From Escherichia coli (GTDB taxonomy: Bacteria > Pseudomonadota > Gammaproteobacteria > Enterobacterales > Enterobacteriaceae), in NCBI RefSeq assembly GCF_030013595.1, contig NZ_CP122768.1: DNA of 64,000 nt; one strand, written 5' to 3'. Below, piece after piece: positions 52,787 to 54,238 of the stretch (its first letter is position 1; the number at the start of each line of letters is the position of its first letter). The translations under genes were made by a program, and so were the position numbers. The notes under the pieces were generated by a model. That model ran no database searches. It was not told where the DNA came from and was given only the letters and a program-made list of their open reading frames with translations.

Positions 52787-54238
52787 GATGAGCGCTCCAC
52801 AGCATCATCTAACAGTCGCATTGGTTCTGGTATTCGTCGCCAGTGGCGACCATCGTACTCGGCATTGATGACCGGTTTAGAATTTTGTGTTAAAGGCAGC
52901 GGCATGCCCCATTGTTCTGGGGCAAGCAGGCGCATCTGCACCAGCTCGGCACTGATTTGATCATCTTCAAACCAGACCATACGGTTTGAGAAAATGTCGC
53001 CAGTCGGCAATGGGAAAATATGGTTCAACGCGGATACCCGGTACCGGACGTAGGGCAACCAGAACGCCTTTACCGTGGGCAGGCAAGAGGGGGTTATTCA
53101 TCATGTTGTTGACGGCATTACAGAACACATCCCACTTCTGGAAACCACGCAGTTTGAGCGGCTGGGTCATTGACAGCAAGGTAGTGATATCTTCCGGCAC
53201 ATAGCGACTAAACTTCTGCCCTTGCACGCTTTCGATCATCGTCAGACAGCGGGAGAGTGGGGCATTCCATGGGATAACCATATTTGCACCGCAGGCCAAT
53301 AACAAACGTTCATCGGTGGCGCGCAGGCTTGCGGTATTTTCCCGTACGAGGATTTTCATCGCACTACCGCGCTGGCGACGCAGAGTATGAATGCTGCGGG
53401 CCAGTGGCTCGATTTGCGCATTTTGCTGTAAAGAAAAGACCACCGTCGCCGCCTGAGCGGTACGGGCTTCATTGAACAGGACTTCGTTATTGTTGAACAG
53501 TTGCCAGTGTTCCGATAGCGGCGGCGCACCTTCCAGTACAGCAACATTACTCAGAATGCGTTTTTCGTCGCTGCGTGGTTGGATCTCCGCCTCTTCGCTT
53601 TGAACTAAGGTCCAGATACCCTTTTGTTGTTGAACGCTAAGCTGCTGACGGGCGCTGACCCCTTTTTCGTTGCACCAGAAGGCAATATCCAGCAAATGTT
53701 GGTCGCCCTGAAAACGCAAACTGGCAAGACCAAAAAGTGAACGGTATTCCTCAAGCAACAATGAAAATTGTTTATCGTTATTATTTCCGGGATTAATTAC
53801 CAAAAGCGAACAATGGTTTAACCTGCTCCATTTATTCATTTTATCCAACCATGAGCGAAGCCGCTCGGCAGGAATGTTTTGCCATGCGTTATTTGCGCAA
53901 ACAAGAATAAAAAGGTAATTATGGGGATCAATAGAACACTGCAAATCACGGGCCAAATAGTATAGACCTTTTTCATGATTTAGCATTGAAAATAATTTTA
54001 TTTTTTCCGGTCCTTGAAAATCATCTAATTGAAAGATTTTCGCCGGATCGCTGTCCATGCTAATGACCGCGACGTGTGCGGTTTCAGCCTGGGATGCAAT
54101 TGTTTGATTCGCCAGACTGATAGCATCTTCATGGCGATCGACGTTAAACCACCAGACGCCGCCTGCTGGCATATGTCGCAGCTCATCCCATAATGATGAG
54201 ATACCGATAGAGAATACAGGGTCCACAATGTCCCTCAT
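52783..54238 (-). pseudogene. bcsE: bcsE with frameshift and apparent internal deletion
   Basis: N-terminal 423-aa ORF (52967..54238) ends in out-of-frame residues; the C-terminus (...NHIFPLPTGDIFSNRMVWFEDDQ...[11 protein letters not shown]) continues in another frame (52783..53058). The 1456-nt span is not a multiple of 3. Confidence 0.8.

Follow-up and report, generated by a model that had tools for sequence, protein, structure and literature searches.

Loss of cellulose through lesions in individual bcs genes is well documented in Escherichia coli. The O104:H4 strain of the 2011 outbreak makes no cellulose, probably owing to a +1 frameshift at codon 448 of its bcsE, and a non-polar deletion of bcsE abolishes cellulose in K-12 AR3110, a strain in which bcsQ, interrupted by a premature stop in K-12, has been restored (Richter et al. 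2014, PMC4287979). In a survey of natural populations, 27 independent bcs loss-of-function mutations were described in ST95, and of 76 common E. coli STs, 74 had a truncation in at least one bcs gene, 'truncated.bcsE' classes included; every Shigella ST in the survey carried bcs truncations, as did many of the Salmonella STs, and loss of cellulose was linked to increased virulence (Nhu et al. 2024, PMC10881479).

The bcsE product is a secondary c-di-GMP sensor and keeps the essential BcsRQ pair in place at the synthase (Anso et al. 2024, PMC11470070). Crystal and biochemical work by Zouhir et al. 2020 (PMC7439463) identified R415 and D418 of an I-site-like RxxD motif, S432 and H445 as ligands of c-di-GMP and assigned BcsQ binding to residues 349-523, a stretch made up of interstitial helix, GGDEF* domain and tail. 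According to the same study, BcsE boosts secretion rather than being strictly essential, and it apparently evolved by fusion of smaller modules, the partners of its N-terminal domain being BcsF and Nus factors.

Here, a stretch of 64,000 nucleotides of E. coli DNA (the window) was analysed, for which a preliminary description made from the sequence had proposed a frameshifted bcsE with about 0.1 kb missing and, together with a bcsA lesion, a decaying cellulose pathway. The comparisons reported below indicate that bcsE of the window is very probably a true inherited pseudogene that arose by a deletion between direct repeats and that is one of several bcs hits in one clone.

Structure of the bcsE locus

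The locus has the arrangement of annotated genomes, bcsG-bcsF-bcsE / bcsR-bcsQ-bcsA-bcsB-bcsZ-bcsC, with bcsE as the first gene of bcsEFG and divergent from bcsRQABZC. The following features were delimited at bcsE.

52783..54238, minus strand: bcsE pseudogene, whole remnant, 1456 nt against 1572 nt in the intact gene
52967..54238, minus strand: 5' open frame of bcsE, 423 aa, with native BcsE residues 1-405 and 18 out-of-frame residues
52970-53023, minus strand: out-of-frame codons of the 423-aa frame, followed by a premature TGA at 52967-52969
53025..53033, minus strand: deletion junction, the sole remaining copy of the 9-bp repeat CCGCGTTGA (sense strand)
52783..53031, minus strand: stranded 3' remnant in the original frame, with native A442-S523 and the native stop overlapping the bcsF start

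In the list of open reading frames, the 423-aa frame starts with MRDIVDPVFS and ends with GIRVEPYFPIADWRHFLKPYGLV, and a 91-aa frame at 52783..53058 on the minus strand, in another frame, contains ALNHIFPLPTGDIF and DDAVERSS and overlaps the start of bcsF by 4 nt. The split described earlier, with the N-terminus in one frame and the C-terminus in a second frame overlapping bcsF, is thus borne out. The 3' remnant is no longer translated as part of BcsE. The interval 52967-53058, to which the lesion had been assigned, holds as the overlap of the two frames; the junction proper is located at 53025-53033, where the plus strand reads TCAACGCGG.

The total span of 1456 nt is not divisible by 3. Intact reference BcsE comprises 523 aa (1572 nt) and not about 485 aa, and the shortfall of roughly 116 nt that had been estimated from this length proved to be exact, as global alignment with bcsE of E. 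coli AF40 (L001) yielded a single gap of exactly 116 nt instead of a continuous in-frame gene. The alignment of 24 kb with E. coli 10035776-3 (L002) contained only two indels, namely the 116 nt in bcsE and 2 nt in bcsA. Of the 5,426 complete RefSeq E. coli genomes, 5,336 had a match to the region in their annotated bcsE-bcsF-bcsG; each full-length match free of an insertion was split into two pieces and spanned 2117 bases of the genome record for 2001 bases of the query. Among the full-length matches listed, the remnant was 98.6-99.9% identical to annotated E. coli bcsE.

Anatomy of the deletion

In intact bcsE (L001, L002 and L003) the direct repeat CCGCGTTGA is located at gene nucleotides 1206-1214 and 1322-1330, and its spacing of 116 nt is the length of the gap. 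In alleles such as that of L002 the repeat amounts to 10 bp, the next base being A in both copies. The intact order reads ...GGGTAT-CCGCGTTGA-GCAAGCC...(lost segment)...CTGGATA-CCGCGTTGA-ACCAT..., and the order in the window reads ...GGGTAT-CCGCGTTGA-ACCAT..., with the repeat present once. The deleted stretch corresponds to gene nucleotides 1206-1321, or to an equivalent register inside the repeat. Both flanks are carried by the sister genome L003 (...GGGTATCCGCGTTGAGCAAG... and ...TGGATACCGCGTTGAACCAT...). No foreign or inserted DNA was present at the bcsE junction, and the flanks aligned without any further gap. The flanking short direct repeat envisaged in the preliminary description was therefore present in the alignment, with a length of 9 bp; the chance that random endpoints share nine bases is about 4e-6.

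Spontaneous deletions between short direct repeats are a classical mutational class of E. coli. A spacing equal to the deleted length, the retention of one of two ancestral copies and the absence of foreign DNA together form the signature of such deletions, and the window allele agrees with the classical cases in all of these respects, its 9-bp repeat and 116-bp spacing being within the typical range and in no way unusual. Judging from the anatomy of the junction, replication slippage (slipped-strand mispairing) most likely made the bcsE deletion. The ancestor of the clade would have lost 116 bp between the two copies of CCGCGTTGA, with one copy left, by mispairing of slipped strands at replication, which is a RecA-independent route of deletion between short direct repeats.

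The heptamers GGTATCC, directly 5' of the first repeat copy, and GGATACC, directly 5' of the second, are reverse complements of each other (window 53034-53040; L003 5446-5452 and 5561-5567), and pairing of the two could in principle draw the repeats together. The lost segment was not unusual in secondary structure, its fold being no better than that of shuffled sequences (z = 0.12).

Programmed ribosomal frameshifting or recoding of bcsE was considered as another account of the two frames and was rejected, as the 116-bp segment is kept in 5,320 of the 5,426 complete RefSeq E. coli genomes and in the nearest sisters, in which the reading frame is continuous. The frame change in bcsE is due to the missing DNA.

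Occurrence of the allele

The bcsE junction was found in none of the 5,426 complete RefSeq E. coli genomes (47-mer search and blastn), and the junction pattern had no matches in the GTDB species representatives or in the JGI metagenome contigs. No record was returned when the 423-aa BcsE and 170-aa BcsA fragments were looked up as exact proteins, and no cluster representative with the frameshift tail of the window was obtained in the protein homology search. By survey of related genomes, the identical junction was found in an independent NCBI assembly, GCA_053635055.1 (L027), whose only difference from the window over 13.9 kb is one base in an A-run of bcsA described below. In L027 neither bcsE nor bcsA is called as a gene and bcsQ is intact; among 24 contigs that were read after exact look-up of the window BcsB allele, 16 further contigs had the same gene-call pattern.

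These results bear on the question whether the gene is in fact intact and the 116 bp were dropped by the assembler, an error that had been named earlier as a possible source of the split frame. Such an artefact would be in line with the missing records of both truncated products and with the absence of the junction from the RefSeq complete genomes, the GTDB representatives and the JGI metagenomes. However, the empty protein look-ups are likely explained by a probable treatment of bcsE and bcsA as pseudogenes in the carrier assemblies, as both are uncalled in L027, and the absence of truncated-protein records does not make the allele unique. Moreover, a precise loss between 9-bp repeats is typical of a biological deletion and not of a read or assembly error, and the 16 contigs with the pattern of L027 also speak against an artefact, which is hence extremely improbable. 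Since the same junction occurs in an independent assembly, it is a heritable marker of the clade. The junction sequence of 29 nt, which no complete RefSeq E. coli genome contains, marks the clade cleanly and can be tested by PCR; in annotation, bcsE and bcsA should here each be flagged as a pseudogene rather than as two open reading frames.

Predicted consequences for the BcsE protein

The full-length BcsE allele matches Pfam PF10995 (CBP_BcsE) over residues 6-514 with E = 7e-226, and the intact sister BcsE matches PDB entries 9fnn, 6tj0, 6ybb and 6ybu along its whole length. In the window the frame is native to E405, followed by 18 nonsense residues and TGA; the codons of Q406-T441 are physically deleted and those of A442-S523 lie in another frame. 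Over residues 1-405 the protein does not differ from the 523-aa BcsE of the sister clade and shares 99% identity with other E. coli BcsE. The preliminary description had placed the lesion before the C-terminal domain, which is near to the position found, but the deletion lies inside the C-terminal GGDEF* domain (349-523) and removes the c-di-GMP I-site (PMC7439463). The RxxD motif R415-T-G-D418 and S432 are lost, H445 is out of frame, and only residues 349-405 of the GGDEF* domain and tail (349-523) are still in frame.

With Q406-T441 gone and A442-S523 out of frame, all four ligand residues and most of the BcsQ-binding module are lost. The product would keep the N-terminal domain 1-217 (BcsF binding and dimerisation) and the degenerate receiver (REC*) domain and would be devoid of the I-site (R415, D418, S432 and H445) and of most of the BcsQ-binding residues 349-523. 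Such a truncated BcsE could neither sense c-di-GMP nor tether the essential BcsRQ pair to the synthase. Loss of function of the window allele is well supported by these predictions; the bcsE lesion alone might only lower the amount of cellulose or its pEtN modification, since BcsE boosts secretion.

The preserved N-terminal and REC* domains, which show no amino-acid change relative to the sister allele, could also be read as the sign of a functional shortened regulator, BcsE(1-405), derived from a split or neofunctionalised gene, and the apparent modular origin of BcsE by fusion, together with the separate partners of its N-terminal domain, BcsF and Nus factors (PMC7439463), would fit such a product. 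However, the break interrupts the GGDEF* fold instead of separating two domains, a credible start is lacking in the 3' remnant, and bcsA is dead in the same genomes, so that there is no synthase to regulate; in addition, the deletion is too recent for the conservation of residues 1-405 to be informative. A functional BcsE(1-405) is therefore very improbable.

Neighbouring bcs genes

The genes next to bcsE were delimited as follows.

52595..52786, minus strand: bcsF, intact, 63 aa
50919..52598, minus strand: bcsG, intact, 559 aa
54510..54698, plus strand: bcsR, intact, 62 aa
54710..55462, plus strand: bcsQ, intact, 250 aa, codon 120 (55067-55069) being the ancestral TGG
55459..58075, plus strand: bcsA pseudogene, net -2 nt after 55871 (codon 139), open reading frames of 170 aa and 737 aa

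The premature stop of bcsE lies 180 nt upstream of the bcsF ATG, which is overlapped by the wild-type stop, and a GGAG Shine-Dalgarno-like motif is located 8 nt before this ATG; judging from this motif, translation of bcsF may persist despite the lost translational coupling with bcsE.

The bcsA lesion that had been reported together with that of bcsE was confirmed as the 2-nt deletion listed above, by which GAAAAAAGAGCTC is changed to GAAAAAAGCTC. Two states of bcsA occur in the deletion clade: L027 reads GAG-AAAAAAA-GCTC (A7, net -1) and the window reads GAG-AAAAAA-GCTC (A6, net -2), the sites compared being window 55860-55875 (codon ~139) and L027 5775-5790. In L027 the G of AAAAAAGAG was lost, which resulted in the A7 run. 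Either the new A7 run slipped a second time, or one of the assemblies contains a sequencing error in this homopolymer. From the truncation of BcsE combined with a frameshift in bcsA, which encodes the catalytic subunit, a cellulose-negative strain is predicted.

A sister clade with a separate bcs lesion

Sister genomes were found when BcsG and a reconstructed intact BcsE were used as exact queries.

L003 and L028: GCA_013896775.1, CP057738.1, 5.39-Mb chromosome
L023 and L026: GCA_900479545.1, 20 similar places
L025: GCA_012292765.1

These sisters (L003, L023, L025, L026 and L028) differ from the window by 3-4 SNPs per 13.7-21.3 kb, and in their clade bcsE (523 aa) and bcsA (872 aa) are intact. 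Because sisters this close to identity carry an intact bcsE, the deletion in the window is derived and recent. The sister clade in turn carries a nonsense mutation in bcsQ, W120* (TGG to TAG; L003 3413-3415, L023 9170-9172), and a synonymous change at bcsE L361, both of which are derived when polarised against nine other genomes. Derived substitutions were additionally present in BcsC (Y351N, A421V and T985M), and BcsA A243T and BcsC Q448E were seen as private changes.

The bcsA frameshift and the bcsE deletion in one clade and bcsQ W120* in the other indicate independent inactivation, and the cellulose pathway was thus hit at least twice within one clone. The decay of the pathway that had been proposed for this lineage is supported, with bcsA and bcsE as the sole broken genes among the window genes checked, and it is sharpened by the independent nonsense mutation and the BcsC substitutions of the near-identical sister clade. 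The paired clades form a small natural replicate of convergent bcs loss.

For the selective meaning of the lesions two readings were weighed. If bcsA or another gene was hit first, the bcsE deletion would have followed as secondary neutral decay under relaxed selection and with no effect of its own. The accumulation of two to three lesions in one pathway, i.e., bcsA -1 and then -2 (A7 in L027, A6 in the window) and the bcsE deletion, fits this course of events, and so do the non-synonymous changes Y351N, A421V and T985M that BcsC gained in the bcsQ W120* clade, as expected of a dead operon. However, no genome with just one of the bcsA and bcsE lesions was found, so that either may have come first; exact look-ups of BcsZ and BcsA likewise returned no genome with a single lesion, both alleles being widespread and the look-ups hence unspecific. 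Secondary decay, which concerns only the selective meaning and is compatible with the molecular account of the deletion, comes close to an even chance, and the bcsE deletion may be selectively irrelevant.

If cellulose was instead selected against, the bcsE deletion or the bcsA frameshift would be the selected hit of an adaptive (pathoadaptive) loss. This is suggested by the independent loss-of-function hits in sister clades of one clone, with the parallel bcsQ stop, and by convergent bcs loss tied to virulence in ST95, many other STs, Shigella and Salmonella (PMC10881479). Furthermore, all clade differences seen, in ~26 kb, fall in bcs genes, with none in ~8 kb of dpp/yhjV/ldr and none in ~3.4 kb downstream of bcsC; this clustering points to selection, but the test is post hoc and suggestive, and one patch of recombination may account for all three BcsC changes. 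Cellulose loss also arises in laboratory passage, which weighs against the adaptive reading. Adaptive loss is a reasonable possibility, though somewhat less likely than not. The stronger form of this reading, with ongoing positive selection against pEtN-cellulose in the lineage as a further natural replicate of the pathoadaptive pathway of ST95, is put forward as a tentative and rather doubtful proposal.

The rest of the window and lineage background

The other 44 window genes checked are intact. These include bcsR, bcsQ, bcsB, bcsZ, bcsG, bcsF, yhjV, dppA and eptB beside bcsE and bcsA, as well as 35 genes from sgbU to yhjX, among which yiaN aligned with gaps but is a complete 425-aa open reading frame; the part of bcsC that lies within the window is open. 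The decay is pathway-specific and not a Shigella-like erosion of the genome. A Shigella origin, which was considered in view of the best E. coli identity of 98.7-99.0%, was not supported, since the 64 kb contain just one IS and, bcsA and bcsE apart, no pseudogenes among the genes checked, and the near-identical relatives have 5.4-Mb chromosomes.

The sole IS seen is an IS3-family element of ~1.4 kb between ysaA and avtA (window ~9600-11170; open reading frames at 9700-10230 and 10335-11057; transposase match E = 4e-89), which is absent at the same site in E. coli 10035776-3. Beside bcsG, in the bcsG-yhjV region (window ~50350-50760), the repeats of an Ldr type I toxin vary in copy number among relatives, with one copy in L004 and L010, two in most genomes including the window clone (L003 and L027) and three in L011, L024 and L030; the 483-bp Ldr unit appeared as an indel in the comparison with L024.

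Over 13-24 kb (window 40000-64000), identity to the best-matching complete RefSeq E. coli genome is no more than 98.7-99.0%. GenBank assemblies such as CP057738.1 are nearly identical to the window, and the lineage is seemingly absent from the annotated complete RefSeq set and apparently sampled mainly by surveillance sequencing. A 2-kb bcsE segment is 99.9% identical to pig isolates (NZ_CM149870.1); set against the 98.7-99.0% over 13-24 kb, this suggests a recombination mosaic.

Comparison with known bcs lesions

Many other, independent lesions of bcsE in public data were observed during the searches. An in-frame deletion of 68 aa (junction of PEDI and MTIGG; P0003 and P0006) also removes the I-site, a frameshifted form of 483 aa has 228 member sequences (P0001), and truncations of 340 aa and 289 aa have hundreds of member sequences (P0016 and P0085). 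In addition, a BcsE-BcsG fusion (P0009) and an insertion of ISKpn26 (IS5 family) in bcsE of NZ_CM149870.1 were seen, and larger deletions exist, e.g., with bcsG joined to bcsA in NZ_CM194533.1.

No paper describing this particular bcsE deletion was found. The lesion predicts a cellulose-negative biofilm matrix, possibly of curli only, for the window clade, and the cellulose-negative state is linked in the literature to stronger inflammation and virulence.

As in O104:H4, a lineage-specific frameshift cuts off the C-terminal part of BcsE and leaves bcsF and bcsG intact. The O104:H4 allele arose by insertion of a single C and lacks only the last 78 aa, with the I-site preserved and bcsA unbroken, whereas in the window a 116-bp direct-repeat deletion removed the I-site and residues 406-523 from the product and bcsA is frameshifted too. 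With the K-12 bcsQ stop the window shares the principle that a lesion of a single lineage silences an otherwise intact machinery, and W120* of the sister clade is analogous to it; the K-12 lesion differs from those of the window in gene, position and type of mutation. The independent truncations of different bcs genes within one clone resemble the bcsRQABZC-bcsEFG losses described by Nhu et al. 2024, although the window allele and clone have no matching entry in that survey, the supplement of which gives per-ST categories only. The bcsE gene of the window is therefore a new allele of the well-documented, recurrent loss of bcs function and cellulose in E. coli.
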